32,225 nucleotides of DNA from a virus (taxonomy: Duplodnaviria; Caudoviricetes): positions 1 to 32,225 of the IMG/VR virus record IMGVR_UViG_3300020239_000013; one strand, written 5' to 3'. The position numbers and the translations under genes are program-made. Shown in pieces: positions 15,063 through 31,418 of the stretch. Within the stretch, counting starts at the first letter, position 1. Each line of letters opens with the position of its first letter. A model generated the notes under the pieces. It was not told where the DNA came from. It searched no databases and worked only from the letters and a program-made list of their open reading frames with translations.

Positions 15063-15485
15063 CTATTTAATTTTAATTAACTTGGGTTTCTTTTCTTCTG
15101 GAATAATTCTTTCCAGTAGTATAGTTAAAAGACCATCTTCTAACTTTGCATCTTTAACTTCAATGTCATCTGCAATTGTAAACTCACGGGTAAACTTTCT
15201 ATATGATATACCTTTATAAATATTTTTTGTATCATGTTCGTTTTCTTTTACAGATTTTATTTTTAATACATTATCTGCAACTTCAACTTCAATATCTTTT
15301 TTACCGAAACCTGCAAGTGCCATTTCAATTCTAAAATTATATTCATCGTCCTTCATAATATCATATGGAGGATATGTTTTAGTTACTCTTGAACTATGTG
15401 CAAGCTGATCGAATAAACGATCAAAGCCAACAGCATAAGGTGTTAATGTATTAAAGTGATCAAATAAAGTTAATGTTTGATTCAT
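15063..15485 (-). CDS. hsp20: Small heat-shock protein (Hsp20/IbpA family)
   Basis: GFDRLF, YPPYDI, IEMALAGF, YKGISYRKFTREF, A.LEDGLL.I.LERIIPEEKKP..I.I. Confidence 0.95.
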   Translation of the reverse strand: MNQTLTLFDHFNTLTPYAVGFDRLFDQLAHSSRVTKTYPPYDIMKDDEYNFRIEMALAGFGKKDIEVEVADNVLKIKSVKENEHDTKNIYKGISYRKFTREFTIADDIEVKDAKLEDGLLTILLERIIPEEKKPKLIKIK

Positions 15486-20158: not shown

Positions 20159-20887
20159 TTATTTCTCCCTCTTAAGAACTCTAATTATATCTATAACATC
20201 TTTTTCAGGTATTGCTATTTCATATCTTGGATCTTCAGTATCCATTTTTCCACCAAAAGTTCTACCTTTTTTATCAGATATAACAGCATGAACATTTGAT
20301 CCAAAAGGTTTAAATGCTTCTGTATCTAACAATCCATGAGTAAATATCATTGGGCCTTCACCGGTACCTGCTTTACCAGGTACGTTAATTGATTTATACC
20401 TAAAAGTATTTGGATCTAATTCTTCAGCCATACTAGTATGAAAATTTATTTGAGTATCATCTCCATATTCTTTTTGTAATCTTTTCTTTTCTTCTAATAT
20501 TTTTCTAATTTCTGGATTAGATAAAGGACCAACATCAGCACCTACACTTCGATAAGGCATCGAAGCAGGATTGCCTAGTATATCACCTAAACTTCTATAA
20601 TCAGGATCTACTACTGCATTTAAAGCACGCTTACCTAACCTACCAACTGGTCTAGCTACTAAACCAAATGGTGTATATCCTAATCCTATTAATCCTGCAT
20701 TAGCAAGTGCTTTTAAATATTCACCTTGCTGATAAGCATTATATGCATCTTTACCAGTTTGTATATCTCCATAAGGAGTAAATGTTTCAGCAGCAAACTT
20801 ACCTAGCTTTTTATAATCTTCAACTGTAGGTATATTTATACCGTAATCTTCAGCGGCATAACCTGCATAGCTAGCTGGTAAAACCAT
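20159..20887 (-). CDS. Possible ejected protein with pre-toxin-like N-terminus and ADP-ribosyltransferase-like C-terminus
   Basis: Gly-rich helices (TPYGD...G.Y..AL..AG...LG..P.G) then FHTS...GEGPMIF...FG..V..V...YEIAI; GGAG SD favours the start at 20887. Confidence 0.45.
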   Translation of the reverse strand: MVLPASYAGYAAEDYGINIPTVEDYKKLGKFAAETFTPYGDIQTGKDAYNAYQQGEYLKALANAGLIGLGYTPFGLVARPVGRLGKRALNAVVDPDYRSLGDILGNPASMPYRSVGADVGPLSNPEIRKILEEKKRLQKEYGDDTQINFHTSMAEELDPNTFRYKSINVPGKAGTGEGPMIFTHGLLDTEAFKPFGSNVHAVISDKKGRTFGGKMDTEDPRYEIAIPEKDVIDIIRVLKREK

Positions 20888-20904
20888 GTTAATCTCCATT
20901 AGGT

Positions 20905-20954: not shown

Positions 20955-22625
20955 TTAAAGCCACTGTGTATCATCATCAAACAAAAAATTATCTGCTTTC
21001 TGCGACCAGGGTACTTTATTCATAGTTAACTTGTCATAATGTGTTCTTAATGTTTCTAAGGCAATAGCTGTAGCCATAATAGTATCATCATGACACCCAG
21101 GAGCAGCCTCAGTTCTTCCGGAGTCGGTACTAACATAATCTTTTAATTCCTGTATAATAGTACGTGATGCTATCCATATATCATCATTTTCTACAGCATT
21201 TTTTAAATTACCAATTATATGTGGTTTTGTTACCTGAGTTGTTTTAAACCCTGGTACCATACCTTCTTCTTTTGATATAGCCGAAATTTTTGTTTGTTTA
21301 TATAAATTTATATAATTCATCTGTGCTAGTCGAGATAATGTTGCAACGCCCATTGAATTACTTTCAACAGTTAACAATGCATTATTATAATAGCGACCTA
21401 AGTAAAATAATAAATCACCAAACTTACTAGGGTCAATATAATTATCTCTATACAAAGCAATTACTTTTCTATCTGTGTCCATAACAACAGCTGCTGAATA
21501 ATCTTGTCCAACACCTAATGCAACATCGGCAGCAAGAATATAATTACTATCCCAATCAGGAAACTCCCATATATCCAGATTGCCATCTTTCGATGCCTCC
21601 CACGTAAATGAATTAAAATCAAATATCATTCTTTTATCAGGTTCAGCAGGTAATAACTTTTTTAATTTGTCCATTGCAAATACAGATTTACCTGCAGTAA
21701 TAAATGCTTCATCGGGAGTTGCTGGGTATTCCTGGCGGAACTTTAGTTCCCCACCTTCAGCAATCTTCAACCGACGCCAGTAGAGTTGTCCGTTGTTTAA
21801 GTTGTGATCCTCTACCAGTAGCTCTTCTTCTGAAGAACGTTCGAAGTCTTCCGGTGGTTCTCTGTAGTATTCAGAGGTCGTAAACCACGGAAGGAATATC
21901 GGTGTATATTCATTTTCACCATTTAATGCACCACGCCATAATCTATAAAACTCACCTTGTGCACCATTAGCGGTTGACTCAAGTATAACTTCAGTACCCG
22001 GCGCTTCAGATATACCCTGAAACAAACCAGCTAATATTTTCTCATCATGTTGCCAGAAAGCAATCTCCGATAGATGTGCTATAGTCGGTGTAGTTCCACG
22101 GCCAGCCTCAGGACTACCCGCAGTATATAATCTATATGACGATACAGGTTTTTCACCAGTAGCATCTTTTTTAAAGTGAGGTGATGAAATAACAATTTCT
22201 TTTGCATTTGATCGCAGCTCAGTTGGTTTATACAAAGAATCCATATTCCTTATAATATTACGGCTCATATTAAATAGTGCGTCAGATGTTGCGCTGTCGT
22301 GTGCCATAACAACTGAACGAGCATGCGGTGTAAAATATGTTTTCCAGAATACTCTGCCAGCACAGTAAGTTGATATTCCTTGCTGTCTAGCTTTTAATAT
22401 AATAGCTCTGACCTTTCCGTTTGTTGCTAACTGTTCATCTAAAATTTCTGTAATTTTTTTCTGACAGTCGTTGAACGTAAAGTTTACAAAGCCCCTCCTT
22501 GCATCTTTAGTAATAATCTTAATATTGTCTGATGCAAAGTCAGTAAAGTTATTCTGATAGTTATTTAGCTTTTTTCTTTTATGTTTTTCTTCGAGAAGCT
22601 GGATTAACTGTTTCTTCTTATTCAT
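20955..22625 (-). CDS. terL: Terminase large subunit
   Basis: Walker A ILKARQQGIST, Walker B HLSEIAFW, ESTANG coupling motif, nuclease ADVALGVGQDYS, VESN and HDD.IMA. Confidence 0.95.
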   Translation of the reverse strand: MNKKKQLIQLLEEKHKRKKLNNYQNNFTDFASDNIKIITKDARRGFVNFTFNDCQKKITEILDEQLATNGKVRAIILKARQQGISTYCAGRVFWKTYFTPHARSVVMAHDSATSDALFNMSRNIIRNMDSLYKPTELRSNAKEIVISSPHFKKDATGEKPVSSYRLYTAGSPEAGRGTTPTIAHLSEIAFWQHDEKILAGLFQGISEAPGTEVILESTANGAQGEFYRLWRGALNGENEYTPIFLPWFTTSEYYREPPEDFERSSEEELLVEDHNLNNGQLYWRRLKIAEGGELKFRQEYPATPDEAFITAGKSVFAMDKLKKLLPAEPDKRMIFDFNSFTWEASKDGNLDIWEFPDWDSNYILAADVALGVGQDYSAAVVMDTDRKVIALYRDNYIDPSKFGDLLFYLGRYYNNALLTVESNSMGVATLSRLAQMNYINLYKQTKISAISKEEGMVPGFKTTQVTKPHIIGNLKNAVENDDIWIASRTIIQELKDYVSTDSGRTEAAPGCHDDTIMATAIALETLRTHYDKLTMNKVPWSQKADNFLFDDDTQWL

Positions 22626-22646: not shown

Positions 22647-22684
22647 CTTTAAGGGGACATTTAAATTTAAACGTCTCCTTAAAG
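22647..22684. promoter_or_regulatory. 38-bp near-perfect palindrome upstream of terL
   Basis: CTTTAAGGGGACATTTAAA / TTTAAACGTCTCCTTAAAG, 17 of 19 positions complementary; one arm recurs at 26815-26832. Confidence 0.7.
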
Positions 22685-22810
22685 GGGGGATCTATATATT
22701 ATATATAAGCTGAAGGATAAGTAAACTTAACTTATAAAATGTGTATATACCCTTATATACTTTCAGCCCCCTACTTCTTTATATACACTTATTTTATTCT
22801 TACATTTTCT

Positions 22811-22839
22811 TTTACATCTTTACTTCCTTAACATAAAAT
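22811..22839 (+). promoter_or_regulatory. Sigma70-like promoter containing no G
   Basis: TTTACA-17 nt-TAAAAT, 5/6 match in both boxes. Confidence 0.65.
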
Positions 22840-22866
22840 TTACTCCACGTTGTTCCATAAATTTTT
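22836..22866 (+). repeat. Intergenic motif A, copy 1 of 3
   Basis: AAATTTACTCC..CATAAATTTTT; other copies at 23578-23610 and 26843-26874. Confidence 0.7.
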
Positions 22867-22903
22867 CTATACTTTTCTTTCAATTATATAAAGGATCTCC
22901 ATT

Positions 22904-23257
22904 ATGCAATTTCAAAAACCTCTTTCTTTTCTTAATCCTCTTTATAATTCACAACAATTCACTAACTTATATAATTATATAAATCTTCCACAAAATAATA
23001 ATTTCTTTCACACTCATTCATTTAATTATATAATTACAAATACACAAACCCAACAATTTTATACACAACACTATAAAATTATAAATCAAACTTTGGGTTT
23101 ACAACCTACTCCTTCTAACCCTAATTATATTACTCCACAACAAAATAATATAATTAACCAATATAATCCTCTTCCTCCAATACCTTCTACACCTCAGGCA
23201 TCTGAAGCACCTCAAACATCTACTCCCACTCCTTCAGAACCTGTTTCTAATTTATAA
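22904..23257 (+). CDS. G-depleted first early gene; N/Q/T/P/Y-rich protein of unknown function
   Basis: AAGGA SD, promoter upstream and terminator downstream; only 10 G in 354 nt; no in-frame TAA despite very high A/T content. Confidence 0.7.
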   Translation: MQFQKPLSFLNPLYNSQQFTNLYNYINLPQNNNFFHTHSFNYIITNTQTQQFYTQHYKIINQTLGLQPTPSNPNYITPQQNNIINQYNPLPPIPSTPQASEAPQTSTPTPSEPVSNL

Positions 23258-23263
23258 ATCTCT

Positions 23264-23295
23264 AAATACCTCACCTAAGCGGTGGGGTATTTTTT
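23264..23295 (+). terminator. Intrinsic terminator
   Basis: AAATACCTCACC-TAAGC-GGTGGGGTATTTTTT. Confidence 0.85.
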
Positions 23296-23300
23296 AAAAG

Positions 23301-23312
23301 AACCTACATCCG
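23301..23312 (+). repeat. Intergenic motif B (AACCYACATCCG), copy 1 of 3
   Basis: Other copies at 26379-26390 and 26896-26907; degenerate copies at 23661 and 24468. Confidence 0.7.
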
Positions 23313-23354
23313 TAGACCCACACGTGTTACGTTGGAGTTTACTTGAAGTTAATC

Positions 23355-23370
23355 TGTCAGAATTCTGACA
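23355..23370. promoter_or_regulatory. Perfect 16-bp palindrome (operator-like)
   Basis: TGTCAGAATTCTGACA, intergenic, about 35 nt before a start codon. Confidence 0.5.
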
Positions 23371-23404
23371 ATATAACCCGCGTCCAAACTTTACAGGAGT
23401 TCCT

Positions 23405-23575
23405 ATGTTATTCACCAATCTCAATAAACGTCTCGATGACGAGTTCCTTTTAATCTATACGAAGCTCAAGCACATTGAGAATCAAATAGATCTTCTCATC
23501 ACTAAACTCGATAACGAAGATGATCCCGAAGATCTTCTCTCAGAATCTGAAAAATCTTTTCTCTCAGATTCCTAA
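23405..23575 (+). CDS. 56-aa acidic early protein (not in ORF track)
   Basis: MLFTNLNKRLDDEFLLIYTKLKHIENQIDLLITKLDNEDDPEDLLSESEKSFLSDS; AGGAG SD. Confidence 0.7.
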   Translation: MLFTNLNKRLDDEFLLIYTKLKHIENQIDLLITKLDNEDDPEDLLSESEKSFLSDS

Positions 23576-23681
23576 TCAAATTTATTCCGGCTAACGCTAC
23601 ATAAATTTTTCTTTACTTTTCCTTCTCTACATATACACCTTATATAAAGGTCCAGATGTTCCTACATCCTAAGAGAAGCAA

Positions 23682-23712
23682 AACGAACCTGAGCATGTCG
23701 TTAAACTGCTCA
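23682..23712 (+). ncRNA. Putative H-type pseudoknot in the ssb leader
   Basis: AACGA(A)C/GUCGUU interleaved with UGAGCA/UGCUCA, then an AU-rich unstructured spacer to the SD. Confidence 0.65.
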
Positions 23713-23755
23713 CGAATTATTTAATCTTAACATCTAGCAAAGGAAGGTACTATCC

Positions 23756-24244
23756 ATGCAGAATTTTGAAGCACGTAATTATCGTATTGATAATGTCGAA
23801 ATCAATTGGGCTAAGCTAGCTAAGCCTGTAAATCCTTTTGGCACTGAGCAATGGGAAATACAAATAGCTACTACTGATAAAGCTAAAGCTGATGAATGGT
23901 CAGCTAATCATTTTAATGTAAAGACTGATAAAGCTGATTCGTCTAAGTATACTGTTTCTCTCAAAAGAAAAGCATACAAAGCTGACGGTTCATCTAACGG
24001 TCCAGTCAGAGTTGTTGGTAAAGATACACAACCTATCGCAGATCCTTCAGTAATCGGTAACGGTTCTGTTGGTAATGTTATTGTATATCAATACCCTTAT
24101 TCTACTGCAGGTCGCGAAGGTATTGCAAGTTCTTTAACTGCAGTACAAATCGTTACTCTTAACGAATACACACCTGCTGTAGACTTCGAGCCGATTGTTG
24201 AACCTCAGCAATCTAATGATCAACCAGCAGAAATGCCATTCTAA
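23756..24244 (+). CDS. Single-stranded DNA-binding protein (gp2.5/DUF2815-like)
   Basis: WAKL.KP, P.VV, IGNGS.GNV and L.AVQI..L.EY motifs; acidic tail ending in PF. Confidence 0.8.
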   Translation: MQNFEARNYRIDNVEINWAKLAKPVNPFGTEQWEIQIATTDKAKADEWSANHFNVKTDKADSSKYTVSLKRKAYKADGSSNGPVRVVGKDTQPIADPSVIGNGSVGNVIVYQYPYSTAGREGIASSLTAVQIVTLNEYTPAVDFEPIVEPQQSNDQPAEMPF

Positions 24245-24254
24245 GGAGATACTT

Positions 24255-24416
24255 ATGGGTGTTATAGCCACAGGTTTATTCCAAGGTATTGTTACTTTAA
24301 TGCTTATCGCCGGTACTATAACTGAGACTGAGAATCATACCTCACTCGATATAACCGGTCTTAAAGCACAAAAAGAAGCAATCTTCATGTCTACAGACGA
24401 TAACACGTCTAAGTAA
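24255..24416 (+). CDS. 53-aa protein with hydrophobic N-terminus
   Basis: TAAGGAG SD places the start at 24255 (MGVIATGLFQGIVTLMLIAG). Confidence 0.6.
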   Translation: MGVIATGLFQGIVTLMLIAGTITETENHTSLDITGLKAQKEAIFMSTDDNTSK

Positions 24417-24424
24417 ATAATTCT

Positions 24425-24456
24425 TAGGGACTAAGCGTTCACTCTCTTAGTCCCTA
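24425..24456 (+). other. Intergenic hairpin (terminator or RNase III-type processing site)
   Basis: TAGGGACTAAG-10 nt-CTTAGTCCCTA perfect 11-bp stem; weak U tract. Confidence 0.55.
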
Positions 24457-24497
24457 CATTATTTAGCAAACCGTCATCCAATATAGAAAGGTAGCTT

Positions 24498-25010
24498 ATG
24501 GCAGTTTATAGAAAACCTCGTAACAGTAAAAAGTCATGGCGATCTAAGTCATATAAATTTACTGTAGCAACTAAAGATGATAAAAGTCTTATCGATCTTA
24601 AAAATACTATTACTAAACAAAATGCAAACGTAAGAAAGCATGCAAGAACTTATCAAATGATTACAGATTATGATATGCTCTACACAGTGCGCCTTATGGC
24701 GCGTGGCCCAAGACGATGGCATACTAAATATAAACCATCTCTTGTAAGATACTTCAAAGGTGCATACGGCATTCCACAAACACAAAAGTTATTACATGGT
24801 AATGCTGATTCTAATCTTAATCATAAATTTGCTGAAGAGTTCGACGTATACGTACATCACGATAGACACGCTCTCGATAAACTAAAACATGAAATCGAAA
24901 CCGGTCAAACTCCTGGTGTTCAACGTAAAATCGAAAAGCTTAAGAATAAAATATGGCGTCTTGAGTTCCAAGCTAAAAATGATAAGTTAGCAGCTTATGG
25001 ATCAAATTGA
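24498..25010 (+). CDS. Basic hypothetical early protein
   Basis: 170 aa Lys/Arg-rich ORF, AAGGT SD. Confidence 0.7.
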   Translation: MAVYRKPRNSKKSWRSKSYKFTVATKDDKSLIDLKNTITKQNANVRKHARTYQMITDYDMLYTVRLMARGPRRWHTKYKPSLVRYFKGAYGIPQTQKLLHGNADSNLNHKFAEEFDVYVHHDRHALDKLKHEIETGQTPGVQRKIEKLKNKIWRLEFQAKNDKLAAYGSN

Positions 25011-25092
25011 TCCGTTTTGGGAATACGTCGGTTCAGGTATCGGCGTAATCCTTTTGATACGAGCAATCCTATATTGGTGGTCGTATCGATAA
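24997..25092 (+). CDS. 31-aa TM micro-protein (not in ORF track)
   Basis: MDQIDPFWEYVGSGIGVILLIRAILYWWSYR; weak SD. Confidence 0.45.
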   Translation: MDQIDPFWEYVGSGIGVILLIRAILYWWSYR

Positions 25093-25127
25093 ACCCATTC
25101 CCTTTAACAACTAAAGAGTTTAAAATT

Positions 25128-25406
25128 ATGCTATTTAAAGTATATAAAGATATTATTAACCATGCTCAATCAGCTCTAGAATCAAGATCTGATGAGCTCG
25201 AATCTATCGTAAATGATTTTATTGAAGAAACTGTTCTCGAGTTCCGTGAAAATGTAACTCAACTAGCAGCTAATCATAATTTTACTGATGAAGACATTCA
25301 AATTATTATCGCAGGCTGTCGTACTTCTGATGAATATAAAGATCTCGAAGACATCGAAAACTGCGAAATACGAAATGTTATGACTTCAACATTCTGTAAT
25401 TTCTAA
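25128..25406 (+). CDS. Acidic hypothetical early protein
   Basis: ATG at 25128 (MLFKVYKD) preferred over the track's TTG start. Confidence 0.6.
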   Translation: MLFKVYKDIINHAQSALESRSDELESIVNDFIEETVLEFRENVTQLAANHNFTDEDIQIIIAGCRTSDEYKDLEDIENCEIRNVMTSTFCNF

Positions 25407-25408
25407 CT

Positions 25409-25597
25409 ATGGTAGTCGAATATAAAATAGTACTCGATGAGAAAGAACGCGATTTGCTTCTTGATCTTATCGAACACCGAGTATTCTTAATTAATTCTAG
25501 AATTGATGAAAAGTATAATACTAAAGATCGTAAAGGTTATAAAGATTCATGTTCAGAATTAAGTATGCTTCATAAAATAGGAGACAGATTAACATGA
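25409..25597 (+). CDS. Hypothetical protein
   Basis: 62 aa ORF in a tightly packed run. Confidence 0.6.
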   Translation: MVVEYKIVLDEKERDLLLDLIEHRVFLINSRIDEKYNTKDRKGYKDSCSELSMLHKIGDRLT

Positions 25598-25680
25598 CAC
25601 TTCCAAGATTTATGCTCGGCATAGCTTTAGGTATTACTTTAATTTTAATCATTGAAAATGTAAAGGTTGTAATAATATGA
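25594..25680 (+). CDS. 28-aa TM micro-protein (not in ORF track)
   Basis: MTLPRFMLGIALGITLILIIENVKVVII; AGGAG SD; ATGA overlaps on both sides. Confidence 0.6.
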   Translation: MTLPRFMLGIALGITLILIIENVKVVII

Positions 25681-25916
25681 GTATGACAAGACCAGACTTC
25701 GAAGCACTTGCACATATGTGTGCTGACGAAACTCACAAAGAATTACTTTGCGATGCTACTATTGATTTACTAGCATCATTCTGTAAATCTCGAAATCCTA
25801 ACTTTGATTCTGACAGATTTCATAATAAAGTTGCTAAACTTAAACTAGCTCAACGTATGGCTATGAAAGGTGTTAACAAAGAATGGTTTGATAAACACGT
25901 TGAGGTTATACTATGA
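25677..25916 (+). CDS. Hypothetical phage early protein
   Basis: MTR.DFEALA....LA..C...NPNFD.DRF motif. Confidence 0.7.
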   Translation: MSMTRPDFEALAHMCADETHKELLCDATIDLLASFCKSRNPNFDSDRFHNKVAKLKLAQRMAMKGVNKEWFDKHVEVIL

Positions 25917-26143
25917 TTAAGCTATTCCACTTCGATGTTTCTGAAAGATCTCCTGTTGATAACCGAGTTCGAGCTTTTGCTAAAGCTACCTCGCTTGATC
26001 TCGGTCTATCTACTAAAGATGAAATCAAAGCTAAACAAAAGATTAATGGCACTCACTGGGTTCCATTAGGTTCGTTCAAGAATAAGAAAGATGCATACGA
26101 TTATATTCAAATACTTCGTGACGAACAAAAAGCATTACGGTAA
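25913..26143 (+). CDS. Hypothetical protein
   Basis: GAGG SD, ATGA overlap; the stop lies inside the tRNA 5' end. Confidence 0.65.
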   Translation: MIKLFHFDVSERSPVDNRVRAFAKATSLDLGLSTKDEIKAKQKINGTHWVPLGSFKNKKDAYDYIQILRDEQKALR

Positions 26144-26213
26144 CTATAGTGTAACGGTTGCACGACAGTTTGTGATTCTGTTAGTTTGAGTTCAAGTCTC
26201 AATAGTTACCCCA
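26139..26213 (+). tRNA. tRNA-His (GTG)
   Basis: G-1, acceptor GTAACTA/TAGTTAC, D stem GTGT/GCAC, anticodon loop TTGTGAT, T arm TTGAG-TTCAAGT-CTCAA, C73 and encoded CCA. Confidence 0.92.
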
Positions 26214-26214
26214 T

Positions 26215-26327
26215 ATTTTTGCGATGAGAGTTAAGGCCTCCTAGTCGGTAGCGACGAAATTAAATAACCACGCGACTCCTCTTGACGGGTTCCTTGAGTT
26301 CACTCGGCCTGGTGAAATTGCAAAAAT
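26215..26327 (+). ncRNA. Candidate structured RNA of unknown class
   Basis: Closing stem ATTTTTGCGAT/ATTGCAAAAAT, internal hairpins and raised GC content. Confidence 0.45.
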
Positions 26328-26369
26328 AAGCCTAGAGCGTACACAATCAAGTGATACCTCTAGGCTTTT
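26328..26369. terminator. Hairpin between convergent units (possibly bidirectional terminator)
   Basis: AAGCCTAGAG...CTCTAGGCTT 10-bp stem with an A run before and TTTT after. Confidence 0.6.
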
Positions 26370-26399
26370 AAAATTGCTAACCCACATCCGAGATACGTC

Positions 26400-26795
26400 T
26401 CAGTCCGACAATTCCGCAATTTTTTTCTGCAAATCCTCTTCCGACATTTCCGCCGTATCAAGTGTCAAGCTAGTCTGGTCAATACGCTGTAGCTTCGGCT
26501 GTTCATACTCAGCTAACGCCATAGCCAATCGTTCTATAGTTTCTTGATCTTCCAATTCAATAGCCTTCGCCAATTGTACTTTAAGTATATCAACGGCCGA
26601 TGGCATTTCGGAAATTACTTCATCCCTAATTTTTTTAAACTCGGAGGCTGACAGTCTCATAGCTTCTCTGAGTGCTTTGTTCTGACGACGCTTCTCCGCG
26701 CCTCTCGCCTGCATCTCACGAGCTGTCTCTGAGTCCATCACTGGTCTCAACTGTGCAAGCGAATTCGGGTGCTTCCCGCAATTCTCATAACCCAT
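26400..26795 (-). CDS. Putative terminase small subunit
   Basis: HPNSLAQL.P...ARE....G N-terminus, PKLQR.D and MSEEDL C-terminus; AAGGAGGT SD; shares an upstream motif with terL. Confidence 0.6.
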   Translation of the reverse strand: MGYENCGKHPNSLAQLRPVMDSETAREMQARGAEKRRQNKALREAMRLSASEFKKIRDEVISEMPSAVDILKVQLAKAIELEDQETIERLAMALAEYEQPKLQRIDQTSLTLDTAEMSEEDLQKKIAELSD

Positions 26796-26917
26796 AGGTA
26801 CCTCCTTTAGATTTCTTTTAGGAGACGTTTAAGATCTTAATTAAATTTATTCCGCTGTCGCTACATAAATTTTTATATAATATATATTTTTTAATAACCC
26901 ACATCCGGAGTATGCGT

Positions 26918-27085
26918 ATGAAACCACATATTAGAATCATTAATCCTATAGCTAAAGCTATGAATGAAGGTAGAAGACGTGAATACGCACATAAAGTTAT
27001 TCCAGATAAAACTAAATACAATCGTAAGAAAGGAAATAAGTATGGCAAAAGTAACAGCCTCGACGATATTGAAAGAAGCAGCTGA
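26918..27085 (+). CDS. 55-aa basic protein, weakly ArfA-like (not in ORF track)
   Basis: MKPHIRIINPIAKAMNEGRRREYAHKVIPDKTKYNRKKGNK...; GGAG SD. Confidence 0.6.
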   Translation: MKPHIRIINPIAKAMNEGRRREYAHKVIPDKTKYNRKKGNKYGKSNSLDDIERSS

Positions 27086-27365
27086 GCTTAAAGAAAGAAA
27101 GCAAGCTGATTACCAAGGTAACATGTGGACTGAAGAAGATTACTTTCCATATGGTAATAAATCGTATATGCATATGATTCATACTAAGTATTTACGCATG
27201 AGAAGTCTTGCAGAAACTAAAGATAAAAAGATTAACTTTGAATCCTTAGAAGATACTTTAGTAGACATGGCAGTTTATTGTGCAATGTTTGCAGCTTATT
27301 TAGAAAATAAGAAATTAGAAAATGCAGATGTTATTGATAAAATTAATTCTGAGAAAGGAATATAA
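27042..27365 (+). CDS. Nucleotide-modification-associated (Nmad1/DUF1599-like) helical protein
   Basis: K..DY, YFP.G..SY, K..R..SL and FES.EDTL.D...Y motifs; AAGGA SD places the start at 27042. Confidence 0.7.
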   Translation: MAKVTASTILKEAAELKERKQADYQGNMWTEEDYFPYGNKSYMHMIHTKYLRMRSLAETKDKKINFESLEDTLVDMAVYCAMFAAYLENKKLENADVIDKINSEKGI

Positions 27366-27587
27366 ATGCAATTTAAAAATCTATTTAATCATGGTAAATA
27401 CGGTGATGCTACTCAATACAATGTATTACTATGTAAGCAGCAATACTCTGAAAAGAAGATTGTAATTAAATTAGAAGAAATTGAATCAATTGAAGAATGG
27501 AACTCTGGTTCTTTATGTGTATACATGAGATCAGGTACCAGACTTTATGTTGAAGGTGACCTAACAGATATATTTAAAAGTGAATAA
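27366..27587 (+). CDS. Hypothetical protein
   Basis: 73 aa ORF, AAGGA SD. Confidence 0.65.
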   Translation: MQFKNLFNHGKYGDATQYNVLLCKQQYSEKKIVIKLEEIESIEEWNSGSLCVYMRSGTRLYVEGDLTDIFKSE

Positions 27588-27589
27588 AC

Positions 27590-28402
27590 ATGCAAATATA
27601 TAACCAAAAATATTTAAATATAGCTGAAGACATACTAAGATATGGTCGTCAGAAAGAAGGTCGTAATGGTTATACTAGATCTTTACCATTTAAAGAACTA
27701 GAATTTGATATGCGTAATCATTACTTCCCGTTACTAACATCACGTAAGATACACTATGAAGGTGTACTAGGTGAATACGCTGCTATAATTAGACAGCCTA
27801 AAAATGTTAAAGACTTTCAGAAATGGGGGTGCAATTACTGGAATGAGTTCGGAGATCCTGATACTGGCGAGTTACGTCTTAGTTACGGTAATAGTTGGTA
27901 TAATTTTAATGGTGTTAATCAAGTAAGAAACGTATTAAATAATCTTAGATCTAATCCATATGATAGAAGACATATTATTAGCGCATGGAATCCTGAAGGT
28001 ATGGAAGATCTAAGTTTACCACCATGTCATTTCTTATATCAATTCTATGTTGATGAAGATAAATATGATAATGAGAAAACTTTATCTATGTTAATGTATT
28101 CAAGATCAGGTGATTGGATGGTAGGTATACCAAGTGATATGGTATTTGGTGCTACTATGCTAGCATGTTGGTCTAACTTAATTGGTGCTAAGTCAGGTAC
28201 ACTAAAACTAATGGTAGCTGATGCACATATTTATTCAGATCATTTTAGTACAGCTTGGTCACAAATAGAAAATGGTTATGTACATTATGATGCTAACTAT
28301 CATTTGCAACCACAGTTTAGTACAGAAGATTTTGAACCAAAGCATATGGAAATATATAACTACGAACATAAAGGAAATATAAAGTATGAGCTTAAAACGT
28401 AA
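27590..28402 (+). CDS. Thymidylate-synthase-family enzyme, predicted dCMP-specific (methylase or hydroxymethylase)
   Basis: FPLLTSRK, DRRHIISAWNP, LPPCH, RSGD and HIY motifs; Asp (GIPSD) in place of the dUMP-selecting Asn (GLPFN). Confidence 0.8.
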   Translation: MQIYNQKYLNIAEDILRYGRQKEGRNGYTRSLPFKELEFDMRNHYFPLLTSRKIHYEGVLGEYAAIIRQPKNVKDFQKWGCNYWNEFGDPDTGELRLSYGNSWYNFNGVNQVRNVLNNLRSNPYDRRHIISAWNPEGMEDLSLPPCHFLYQFYVDEDKYDNEKTLSMLMYSRSGDWMVGIPSDMVFGATMLACWSNLIGAKSGTLKLMVADAHIYSDHFSTAWSQIENGYVHYDANYHLQPQFSTEDFEPKHMEIYNYEHKGNIKYELKT

Positions 28403-28919
28403 CGAAAATTATTCAGAATGGTATGATGATATTAGAATCATGCATGATAAATTCGGTGCTAAAGAATGGGTTAGACGCCAATTCGAAGCAAGAAATTTTA
28501 AATTATTAAATGATTTCTTAGCATTTAGATTAGACTTTTTAGAAGAAGAGTTTGAAGAAACTCAAGCAGCTTTCTTAAATAAAGATCACAAAGAAGTAGT
28601 TGATGGTTTAATTGATCTTATTGTTATTGCAATAGGTACATTAGAATTATTTAATTGTGATGCAGATAAGGTATGGAAAGAAGTACATAAATCTAATATG
28701 GCTAAAGAACCTGGAGCAAATAAATCCAGGAAGAATCCATTTGGTTTACCAGATATGGTTAAACCTGAAGGCTGGAAAGGACCTGAAATAACTAAGTATG
28801 ATTGCGGAATACTATCTGATATATTTGAAGCAGAAAGAGAAAGGCTTTTAGTATTAAGAGAAAAACGTGATTTACAAAATGAATTTAAAGGTCAAGTAGC
28901 AAACTCACAATATGAATAA
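28386..28919 (+). CDS. MazG-like (DR2231/PRA-PH type) dNTP pyrophosphatase
   Basis: EEE.EE, E.VDGLIDL, EVH.SNM.K and KP.GW..P motifs. Confidence 0.85.
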   Translation: MSLKRNENYSEWYDDIRIMHDKFGAKEWVRRQFEARNFKLLNDFLAFRLDFLEEEFEETQAAFLNKDHKEVVDGLIDLIVIAIGTLELFNCDADKVWKEVHKSNMAKEPGANKSRKNPFGLPDMVKPEGWKGPEITKYDCGILSDIFEAERERLLVLREKRDLQNEFKGQVANSQYE

Positions 28920-28928
28920 GGAGTATAT

Positions 28929-29123
28929 ATGAGTGACGATTTACAAAAAACTAATGTTGCTGATAGCAAACCTGTAACGGTTGATGATGTTAGAAAAGCA
29001 ATAATAGGTGACGAAAATAAATTCTTGTTATTAAATGTATTCAATAATTTAATGCAAGAAAATCAACAACTTAAAGCTGAGCTTGAAGCCAGCAGAAAGG
29101 CTAACAATGAGGCTAACGTTTGA
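28929..29123 (+). CDS. Small coiled-coil protein
   Basis: TAAGGAG SD; LMQENQQLKAELE. Confidence 0.65.
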   Translation: MSDDLQKTNVADSKPVTVDDVRKAIIGDENKFLLLNVFNNLMQENQQLKAELEASRKANNEANV

Positions 29124-30942
29124 TATAGAAACTGACGGTCTAGATGCGACTAAGATATGGTGTTTAGTAATACAAAACATAGATACAGGTCGTATCATGA
29201 AATACACTAATGAATCCGATAAATATGATGGGCCTATTAAAATGGGCCTATCATTATTAGAAAAAGCAAATTTACTAATAGCACATAATGGTATTGGTTT
29301 TGATGCACTAGTAATTAAAAGATTATATAATGTTGATTTGTATCAAGGTAATAGATTCTTTGATACATGGATAGCATCTCAAGTATTAAACTACAGACGA
29401 CCACATAAACATGGGTTAGCTGGATGGGGTGAGTATCTTAAATATCATAAAGGTAGTTATGATGATTGGTCACATTTCTCTGATAGAATGATGGAGTATT
29501 GTGTAAGAGATGTTAAATTAAACTCTGTAATATACGGTCATCTTACATCAGAATTAAATAGATTAGCCATGAAGAAACCATTAATACGTAAAGGTTTACG
29601 AAATGAAATGACTGCTGCTAAATTTGATGCATACTGTCAATACTATGGCTGGGCTTTTAATAAAGATAAAGCTAATTTATTATTAGATGATATTGAAAGT
29701 AGTATGAATGCTATCGAAAAAGTAATTGAACCTGAGCTACCACCAGTTATTAAGTTAATTGATAAGAAACCTAAGACACCTAAGTTTACTAAGAAAGGTG
29801 AATACACTGCAGCCACTGCACGTATGCTAAGTGAATTTCTTAATCAAGAAGTTAAACCTAATCATACATTTAAATGGGAAGCTGGTAGAGAGTTTCAAAG
29901 AAAAGAAACTAAGAAAGCTAATATGGGTAATCTTGCACAAGTTAAAGAATACTTATACTCAATCGGATGGGAACCTGATGATTGGAAAATGGAAAGATTA
30001 GGCAGAGAGTTCATTAAGAAAACACCTAAACTTACATCAACTTCATTAGAAAAGCTTGGTGATAAAGGTAAAATGATTGATGAATGGACTACACTTAGAT
30101 CACGTAAAGGTGTTGTTGAAGGCTGGCTTAATAACTTAAAGAATAATAGATTACATGGTAAACTATGGATAGTAGGTACACCTACATTCAGATGTCGCCA
30201 TGAAGTTATTGCTAATCTTCCAGCAGCTAATGCTAAACTTGGTAAATCAATTAGAGAATTACTAACAGCAGAACCTGGAAGAAAGATAGTAGGTGCTGAT
30301 TCTAGTGGTAATCAATTCAGATCATTAGCACATTATGTTAAATCAGATAGTCTTACAAATCAAATACTAGATGGAGATATACATCAGTATAATGCAGACA
30401 TTATTAATACTGATAGACGTACTGCAAAGACTTGGATCTATGCATTTCTATTTGGTGCTGGTGCTACTAAACTTGGTAAAGTACTTACAGGTAAAGGTAA
30501 CATACAAGCTGGCAAACAATCTATAGAAAAGTATGGTGATGCTATTCCTGGTTTAAAAGCATTAAAAGATAATCTAGTATCAATGTGGAATATAACAGAT
30601 AATCATAGCAGAAATGTTGAAGGTTATGTTCCTGGTCTTGATGGTCGTAAAGTTTATGTACCACAAGATTATCAAACACTTAATTATTTGTTACAAAGTT
30701 GTGAAGCTATAACTACAAAAGCTGCATTACATTATCAAATGAATAAAATTAAATCAGAAAATCTTGATGCTGAGCCTAGACTTTATTATCATGATGAAGT
30801 AGCATGGTCAGTAGCAGAAGAAGATGCTGATAGAGTATTAGAAATACTTATAGAATCATTTGCCGAAGGTCCTAAAGAAATGGGCGTAGATATTATGGCA
30901 GGTGAAGGTACAATTGGTAATAACTATGCGGAGGTACACTAA
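29107..30942 (+). CDS. Family A (T7-like) DNA polymerase with 3'-5' exonuclease
   Basis: FDIETDG, AHNGIGFD and YC.RDV exonuclease motifs; motif A GADSSGNQFR.LAHY, B RRTAKTWIYAFLFG, C YHDE; ATG at 29107. Confidence 0.95.
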   Translation: MRLTFDIETDGLDATKIWCLVIQNIDTGRIMKYTNESDKYDGPIKMGLSLLEKANLLIAHNGIGFDALVIKRLYNVDLYQGNRFFDTWIASQVLNYRRPHKHGLAGWGEYLKYHKGSYDDWSHFSDRMMEYCVRDVKLNSVIYGHLTSELNRLAMKKPLIRKGLRNEMTAAKFDAYCQYYGWAFNKDKANLLLDDIESSMNAIEKVIEPELPPVIKLIDKKPKTPKFTKKGEYTAATARMLSEFLNQEVKPNHTFKWEAGREFQRKETKKANMGNLAQVKEYLYSIGWEPDDWKMERLGREFIKKTPKLTSTSLEKLGDKGKMIDEWTTLRSRKGVVEGWLNNLKNNRLHGKLWIVGTPTFRCRHEVIANLPAANAKLGKSIRELLTAEPGRKIVGADSSGNQFRSLAHYVKSDSLTNQILDGDIHQYNADIINTDRRTAKTWIYAFLFGAGATKLGKVLTGKGNIQAGKQSIEKYGDAIPGLKALKDNLVSMWNITDNHSRNVEGYVPGLDGRKVYVPQDYQTLNYLLQSCEAITTKAALHYQMNKIKSENLDAEPRLYYHDEVAWSVAEEDADRVLEILIESFAEGPKEMGVDIMAGEGTIGNNYAEVH

Positions 30943-31418
30943 TGATTGTAGATATTAATGTAACAAAAGATTTTATTAATCAACGTGATGCTCGCGCTGA
31001 AATATATAATCCAAGGGGCAGATCATTCGAACGATTAAAACTTGATATTGAATGTGAAATATTTGAGTGGTGGATGATTGATAAAGGTACTTGGCAAGAC
31101 CATATTGATTGGCAAGTTGATGGCGTCGATCAAATATATGGTAATGTTGATGTTAAATTTATTAAAACCTGGTATAATATTCCATGCAATAAAATGGTTT
31201 ATTTATTAAAGCAAAGAGAATTAACAGATAACTTTTTCTTTTGTGAATGGAATGATAGACCTGAAAGATTATTAGTTGCAGGTGATATGGTTAAAGTTAA
31301 TACACTTGGTGTACTAGAATACTGGGAACTAATGGATATAATTAAACCTTCTAAATACAACGGGTTTTATGCAGATATTCGTAAGCATTTAGAAAGAAAG
31401 GAAGTACATGGAAACTAA
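30942..31418 (+). CDS. Putative PD-(D/E)xK endonuclease
   Basis: E..E helix, then VD and VDVK spacing typical of restriction-endonuclease-like folds. Confidence 0.5.
   Translation: MIVDINVTKDFINQRDARAEIYNPRGRSFERLKLDIECEIFEWWMIDKGTWQDHIDWQVDGVDQIYGNVDVKFIKTWYNIPCNKMVYLLKQRELTDNFFFCEWNDRPERLLVAGDMVKVNTLGVLEYWELMDIIKPSKYNGFYADIRKHLERKEVHGN

Follow-up and report, generated by a model that had tools for sequence, protein, structure and literature searches.

A first early gene nearly free of guanine in a marine podophage that likely replaces its cytosine with 5-methylcytosine

One described route to 5-methylcytosine (5mC) in phage DNA runs through a shared gene neighborhood. Passages of a preprint (bioRxiv 2024.12.05.627091) place genes for a thymidylate synthase (TS) homologue with Asp at its specificity position, a deoxycytidine monophosphate (dCMP) deaminase, a PRA-PH pyrophosphatase, and PolA together, report that five of seven tested TS enzymes made 5mdCMP, and propose the deaminase as a source of dT. 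Here we analyze a window of 32,225 nucleotides (nt) (the whole of IMG/VR virus record IMGVR_UViG_3300020239_000013), a 32-kb piece of a marine podophage genome organized in two divergent arms, in which a cassette of this kind shares the early arm with a first gene whose coding strand is almost free of G. The closest cultured phage is Roseobacter phage CRP-7 (60% for terL, the terminase large subunit gene, and 35% for the RNA polymerase), and the window and the CRP-7 group have in common a related terL, a late-placed T7-like RNA polymerase gene, and the two-arm layout. A full-text literature search, with most subscription papers beyond its reach, found no description of a first unit that lacks one base.

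Extent and conservation of the G-free first unit

The plus strand carries G-free runs of 188 nt (positions 22907 to 23094), 99 nt (23098 to 23196), and 82 nt (22767 to 22848), and the segment from 22767 to 23196 contains 8 G's where 80.5 are expected; shuffling the window 200 times gave longest G-free runs that averaged 53 nt and never exceeded 81 nt. The remaining G's fall in the ribosome site, the start codon, one Leu-Gly pair, the region encoding the protein tail, and two leader positions, the Shine-Dalgarno site (22893 to 22894) holding two of the four G's of the leader. A first-pass annotation of the window had described a first gene whose template lacks C; the depletion is real, and the template strand is nearly, though not wholly, C-free, because the open reading frame (ORF) retains 10 G's. 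A second short G-free stretch that the same annotation had singled out upstream of ssb (Table 1) is of chance length, matching the shuffle mean, and was rejected as a real feature.

The G-free zone begins after a conserved motif, which among the loci listed occurs in relatives both with and without a G-free gene (our pattern for it matched 15 of 18 loci). The motif likely lies at or close to the left end of the packaged genome, as suggested, from contigs only, by its conservation and its position between the divergent arms and by the break of the linear CRP-7 record in the same region. In the 120 nt past the motif, nine G-free loci hold 0 to 7 G's versus 13 to 32 in six other loci, the pattern having missed 3 of the 18. 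In locus L065, the first 560 nt upstream of terL contain repeated 8-nt units after the motif, which we take to resemble the terminal repeat sequence of T7 and thus to hint at a genome end. On the right, a hairpin with a T-run likely acts as the intrinsic terminator that ends the first unit; it was not among the predictions of a terminator scan.

The encoded protein of 117 amino acids (aa) consists of a folded core of ∼65 aa and a Pro/Thr/Gln/Ser-rich tail. A spurious ORF in low-complexity DNA was ruled out: the probability of an open frame from 22904 to 23257 at its composition is about 0.001, and ratios of nonsynonymous to synonymous substitution rates were 0.12 to 0.62 in seven pairs, below 1 in every one of them, pointing to purifying selection. 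Database searches returned 37 homologous clusters, none with normal composition, and across 38 homologues the residues requiring G amount to 1.4% of the core and 10% of the tail, compared with 42% in neighboring genes. The protein is written with 11 amino acids (Lys, 2.6%; Gln, 13%; Pro, 12%), and acidic residues are almost absent (Asp plus Glu, 0.7%), which excludes an acidic, Ocr-like DNA mimic. No match was obtained in Pfam, PHROG, PADLOC, or ESM Atlas. A first structure model was too poor for use (predicted local distance difference test [pLDDT], 49); a second, from AlphaFold, reached a pLDDT of 72 in the core and found no fold match in PDB, BFVD, or a wide search, a result that shows neither novelty nor difference. 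RNA contigs from one of four RNA runs span 22796 to 23211 at a depth of 2.5 to 3.5 and show neither strand nor start, and the other three runs did not cover the gene; part of the leader may thus be transcribed.

The ban on G is stricter in relatives. Zones entirely without G measure 309 to 656 nt, whole gene bodies of 460 to 510 nt are G-free, and in homologues of 170 codons the sole G is that of the ATG; a conserved gene of this length with its only G in the start codon is a striking natural object. Two pairs of G-free orthologues differ at 118 and 56 nucleotides, and none of those changes involves G. Of the 16 loci listed, most regain G in the terminator stem, whose distance from the end varies, and in L020, L028, and L180, the G-free zone extends about 120 to 160 nt beyond the stop codon. 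Unrelated genes in the first slot are likewise G-poor (L051, L060, L048, L064, L084, and L093); therefore, the ban is a property of the slot and not of one protein. The first gene of L084 can be aligned with a normal-composition gene of its sister L085, from which it differs by 31 G losses, of which 16 are G-to-A changes and 15 are transversions, and 5 G gains. The base dropped is always G and never C, although C is rarer in these coding strands, its loss costs fewer amino acids, and the start codon and ribosome site require G; no C-free first unit was found among the terL loci. These patterns indicate that the depletion is strand specific and selected. Two narrower causes were tried and rejected, namely, avoidance of GA steps alone, since GA persists (14 in 13 genes), and avoidance of UV dimers, since coding-strand AA (template TT) occurs at expectation (observed/expected ratio of 1.02).

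The first-unit locus was found in all four DNA runs, from four studies, and in two of them a co-occurring strain has positions 22690 to 23332 exchanged for a different 649 bases, so the first unit is a swappable cassette. Its right border is formed by a conserved noncoding motif at 23330 to 23385, past the first terminator, which is present in many relatives regardless of the first gene. In L015, L016, L036, and L175, the slot is occupied by a normal-composition gene that we take to be SLOG/YspA-like.

The cytosine cassette and its link to the first unit

The annotation had named an Nmad1-like protein, a TS homologue of the dCMP type, a MazG-like pyrophosphatase, and a polymerase in the early arm, and all four were recovered (PF07659, PF00303, PF01503, and a family A polymerase). 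The window TS has Asp at the position equivalent to Asn177 of the E. coli enzyme, where canonical enzymes have Asn, as do the TS of Xp12 and 18 of 18 distinct clade sequences aligned; passages of PMC8670742 use Asp at this position as a criterion. Putative candidates for the removal of deoxycytidine triphosphate (dCTP) in the window are Nmad1 and the MazG-like enzyme, the latter being predicted to act on dCTP. The genes for Nmad1, the MazG-like enzyme, and a 158-aa protein co-occur in 22 of 22 loci with the cassette and in none of 5 loci without it (27 of the 29 loci chosen had hit tables, and many are close kin). The 158-aa protein had been called a restriction-like nuclease; an ESM Atlas lead makes a PD-(D/E)xK nuclease possible, and matches in Pfam, PHROG, and PADLOC were lacking. 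Beyond the window edge, L014, which is 100% identical to the window in TS and 99% in terL, carries a dCMP-family deaminase of 151 aa (PF00383; E value, 1e−22), the substrate of which is predicted.

No kinase, oxygenase, or transferase was recognized in the composite genome, made up of the window and contigs G001 and G002, in which several small ORFs have no assignment and not all were scanned; the annotation had likewise seen no kinase or hypermodification enzyme in the window. Plain 5mC is the likely base for this reason, and the phage likely replaces cytosine with it, in line with the cytosine-modifying pathway proposed earlier. As to other bases, TS homologues are also able to make 5-hydroxycytosine according to PMC13326640, and this may be the base of the window phage. 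Hypermodified cytosine of the T4 and RB69 type, which takes a gp42-type synthase together with a DNA glycosyltransferase or other transferase, does not fit: the window TS is ThyA-like, and neither a transferase nor a TET enzyme was recognized in the composite genome. We consider the cassette a new member of the known 5mC pathway.

Genes like that for the T4 gp42 dCMP hydroxymethylase stand in place of the ThyA-like gene in L093 (1159 to 1833), L241, L308, and L320 to L325, and the cassettes of L320, L321, L323, and L324 also hold a 279-aa methyltransferase-like gene, possibly for a further modification. L157 lacks the cassette, and at the place of the clade's deaminase it has a gene that we take to be ThyX; by Pfam, ThyX was found in one of five records searched, that of L327.

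To relate the first unit to the cassette, we compiled 35 contigs on which the first unit and the cassette slot are both visible, after merging repeated contigs by hand. The 29 contigs with a cytosine cassette had 10 G-free, 6 G-poor, and 13 normal first units; two of the 10 G-free contigs show only part of TS, and L166 may be the window's own genome. None of the six contigs without the cassette had a G-free unit (Fisher's exact P = 0.11, with related lineages; counting G-poor units, 16/29 versus 0/6, P = 0.017). Phylogenetic profiling, which the annotation had suggested, thus came out in the predicted direction and short of significance among related contigs, and the link between the G-free unit and the cassette is a tendency rather than proven. 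Its strongest single support comes from L093, which has a different, G-depleted first gene on the same contig as a homologue of T4 dCMP hydroxymethylase (E value, 4e−47) and belongs to a separate terL clade; on this quick terL tree (no bootstrap, L204 omitted), it represents an independent second origin of the ban, alongside a different enzyme.

Table 1. Features of the window around the divergent arms and in the early arm
Feature	Position	Strand	Remark
Terminase large subunit (terL)	20955..22625	-	First gene of late arm; anchor for locus comparison
Back-to-back pair of promoter-like motifs	22647..22684		Inverted repeats I3/I4; kept in relatives
Conserved motif (AT-repeat, C-run, second C-run)	22745..22776	+	G-free zone begins after motif
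G-poor leader	22767..22903	+	Sigma-70-like promoter candidate at 22811-22839
117-aa first early gene	22904..23257	+	10 G in 354 nt
Hairpin and T-run	23267..23295	+	Read from sequence; normal G content from here on
Second short G-free stretch	23597..23648	+	52 nt; preceded by repeated promoter-like motif
ssDNA-binding protein (ssb)	23756..24244	+	PF10991, phrog_112; normal G content (19%)
Nmad1 (DUF1599) protein	27042..27365	+	PF07659, E value 1e−5; start set by alignment
Asp-type TS homologue, predicted dCMP methylase	27590..28402	+	PF00303
MazG-like (PRA-PH) pyrophosphatase	28386..28919	+	PF01503, phrog_671
Family A DNA polymerase	29107..30942	+	PF00476
158-aa protein	30942..31418	+	ESM Atlas lead to PD-(D/E)xK clusters, 0.91

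Explanations for the missing base

We favor, at a probability of roughly 45%, the reading that the G-free coding strand provides a clean template for an accessory anti-defense gene in a phage that is likely 5mC substituted. The template of the first unit, which likely runs from the genome end to the terminator, would hardly contain the modified base, and polymerase could still read it in hosts where modified cytosine is attacked or causes stalling. Host polymerase would read the unit from the incoming modified DNA, and modified C would be damaged by a host factor, the simplest candidates being a base-excising glycosylase and a nickase; if the lesions lay on the coding strand only, they would neither stop transcription nor face opposed lesions and so would not give a double-strand break. 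The product would be an accessory inhibitor of such a defense, kept or swapped by host. A strand-specific ban on G places the cause in the C of the template or the G of the transcript; we favor the template because the ban is linked to two cytosine cassettes, and we favor host-dependent attack because it fits the patchy distribution of the first unit. Passages of two reports (10.64898/2026.02.25.707755 and 10.1101/2025.10.29.685425) describe defense glycosylases that leave abasic sites at modified bases, and those of the former show that such enzymes exist for 5-hydroxymethylcytosine (5hmC) and propose that they interfere with replication and/or transcription.

Several observations weigh against this reading. 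Brig3 is inactive on 5mC in the passages of 10.64898/2026.02.25.707755, and no 5mC-excising defense glycosylase appeared in the literature consulted. Normal first units occupy 13 of the 29 cassette contigs, and the strict comparison (P = 0.11) draws on contigs that are not independent; in L007, L035, and L204, the first gene is missing and ssb leads the arm. The window's own lineage leaks, with changes to G in 3 of 20 variant rows and with 10% of tail residues in need of G. No G-free zone is present in Xp12 (5mC), in DSS3_VP1, a deoxyuridine (dU) phage according to PMC8323127, or in the cultured phages Kolga, PH1, VPMS1, KF-1, and Amaethon, all five of which have an Asp-type TS; a modified genome does not require such a zone. 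Finally, the first gene of CRP-7 is A-free, although that phage has no known gene for modifying T.

In CRP-7, the same slot holds A-free runs of 224, 168, and 104 nt within an A-free coding strand (L102, 27385 to 28070; MK613349, about 57384 to 58069). An unannotated plus-strand ORF of 128 aa lies there (L102, 27609 to 27995), and GenBank annotates the opposite strand, whose gp72 is probably an artifact, since a T-free strand contains no stop codons. A-free runs were seen in 5 of 23 terL loci of the group (L255, L266, L284, L287, and L291); many of the remaining loci stop short of the slot, and no A-free run is present in L259 and L295, which do extend to it. The 128-aa protein has 56 homologous clusters, with a median of 3% of residues requiring A, and aligns with a homologous gene of normal composition in L255 (28% over 87 aa; E value, 3e−7). 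Among 33 CRP-7 proteins scanned, none matched TS, ThyX, or a deaminase, and none belonged to the families known from dU phages, which passages of PMC12697855 give as a dCTP deaminase together with a dTMP phosphatase or dTTP pyrophosphatase; the clade retains gp21, an N-deoxyribosyltransferase-like protein. Either CRP-7 holds a thymine substitute or the cause lies at the RNA level. A role in Rho loading or in keeping RNA unstructured would leave the G-rich, A-free unit of CRP-7 unexplained. As a separate observation, Xp12 (L328, 16851 to 17043) has a 193-nt A-free run within a gene on the minus strand that is annotated as TolA and probably encodes a low-complexity repeat protein.

A thymine substitute in CRP-7 would complete a general rule by which phages with noncanonical DNA recode the unit read first to three letters, leaving its template free of their own modified base. 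We offer this rule tentatively and regard it as doubtful. If it is true, such genes are predictors of the modified base and also of inhibitors of modification-sensing defenses that are not yet known, the host of the window phage has an undescribed defense that attacks 5mC, and CRP-7 carries an unrecognized thymine substitute. Should the missing base prove a marker of the modified one, base-modified phages and their earliest counter-defense proteins could be found in metagenomes by a simple scan of composition; the first unit also points to host defenses able to recognize modified bases in the template strand. Because both CRP-7 and its host can be grown in culture, the question is open to test.

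The clean-template reading has its strongest rival in a constraint on the RNA, by which the first transcript would omit one purine because GTP or ATP is scarce or to escape a base-specific RNase or RNA-modifying toxin. The zone coincides with one transcription unit, both versions drop a coding-strand purine (G here and A in CRP-7, the latter with no known modifying gene), and the RNA contigs at 22796 to 23211 suggest that part of the leader may be transcribed. Against it, translation requires GTP and ATP in any case; a motif-specific RNase would not demand the loss of a whole base, and the GA steps noted above remain; and G-free units were seen only in lineages with cytosine cassettes, twice, and in none of the six others. 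We judge this explanation unlikely, though worth serious consideration.

In the strong form of the annotation's proposal, host RNA polymerase is stopped by modified C in the template, and the 117-aa protein would license the polymerase for what remains of the arm. The phage RNA polymerase is encoded last in that arm, and passages of PMC4838386 report that fully 5mC-substituted templates blocked Bacillus subtilis polymerase in vitro, E. coli polymerase being partly tolerant. The same passages ascribe the block mainly to initiation, with no shorter transcripts, whereas here gene bodies of 460 to 510 nt are wholly G-free. In close relatives that carry the same cassette, the gene is missing and the arm starts with ssb, the slot is filled by unrelated proteins, co-occurring strains swap the whole cassette, and the composite genome has no recognized transferase, oxygenase, or kinase. 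With normal first units in 13 of 29 cassette contigs and no zone in the 5mC phage Xp12, a need for the product was not supported, and licensing appears improbable.

Some type IV nucleases need modified C on both strands, and the phage could be avoiding such sites, with the choice of strand incidental. One strand without G leaves no site with methyl-C on both strands, in noncoding DNA as well. A C-free coding strand would be equally effective and cheaper, yet none was seen among the terL loci, and a nuclease for which one modified C suffices would still be able to cut; we consider this very improbable.

Mutation is the least probable cause: 5mC in a template left single stranded near the genome end would be deaminated to T, perhaps by a phage deaminase, erasing coding-strand G, as mSCD-type deaminases acting on single-stranded 5mC DNA (passages of bioRxiv 2024.12.05.627091) and the 16 of 31 G-to-A losses in L084 would allow, but the other 15 losses are transversions, Lys stands at 2.6% against 13% Gln and 12% Pro, the zone stops at the terminator whatever its distance from the end, and sister strains retain normal G at the same place.

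Genome layout and comparison with known systems

The minus-strand arm of the window carries the structural genes and terL, and the plus-strand arm carries the early and replication genes. Near-identical contigs extend the early arm with a RusA-like gene, a primase-helicase gene, a dCMP-family deaminase gene, and, last, a T7-like RNA polymerase gene, from which position we infer that the early arm is initially read by the host polymerase. The back-to-back motif pair between the arms likely serves this phage polymerase, one copy directed toward terL and one toward the early arm. A third copy (26815 to 26832) lies ahead of a conserved 131-aa minus-strand gene (26400 to 26795) that opposes the early arm and has no family match; we would guess that it possibly encodes the small terminase subunit. 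A 26-nt motif occurs in three copies (22856, 23600, and 26864), each ahead of an early or middle gene block, and these are likely host-polymerase promoters. In the late arm, the gene next after terL encodes a 246-aa protein (20159 to 20899, minus strand) with no Pfam, PHROG, or PADLOC match; it is missing at that place in L014, and its C-terminal half is, to our eye, presumably reminiscent of ADP-ribosyltransferase-like folds. An Hsp20 gene (PF00011) lies at 15063 to 15485 on the minus strand. A polymerase scan of bacterial genomes for the host gave no match.

In the first-step transfer DNA of T5 and the class I genes of T7, the DNA that enters first is shaped by host defense and carries accessory anti-defense genes. 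The first unit would resemble these leading regions in that respect, its inhibitor role being putative; T5 and T7 avoid short recognition words on both strands, whereas the window phage has dispensed with an entire base on a single strand. The glycosylases Brig1, Brig2, Brig3, and Dag produce the type of lesion that a clean template would evade. Brig3 differs in excising 5hmC and not 5mC (passages of 10.64898/2026.02.25.707755), and phage inhibitors of defense glycosylases are proposed in the discussion of 10.1101/2025.10.29.685425; the passages of both reports contain no demonstrated inhibitor or clean-template strategy.

The cassette itself shares with the Xp12/PaMx74/mSCD-B5-type pathway an Asp-type TS, a dCMP-family deaminase, PRA-PH, PolA, and an exonuclease in one neighborhood (passages of bioRxiv 2024.12.05.627091), and in neither was ThyX seen. 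It differs in that the window TS is 22% identical to that of Xp12, no nucleotide kinase was recognized, and the deaminase gene lies about 6.5 kb from TS; Xp12, for its part, has no G-free unit. The CRP-7 group drops A and not G and lacks TS, ThyX, and deaminase matches, but it resembles the window (passages of PMC6918029) in being a two-arm podophage group with a T7-like RNA polymerase gene closing the early arm and a base-free first gene in the same slot.

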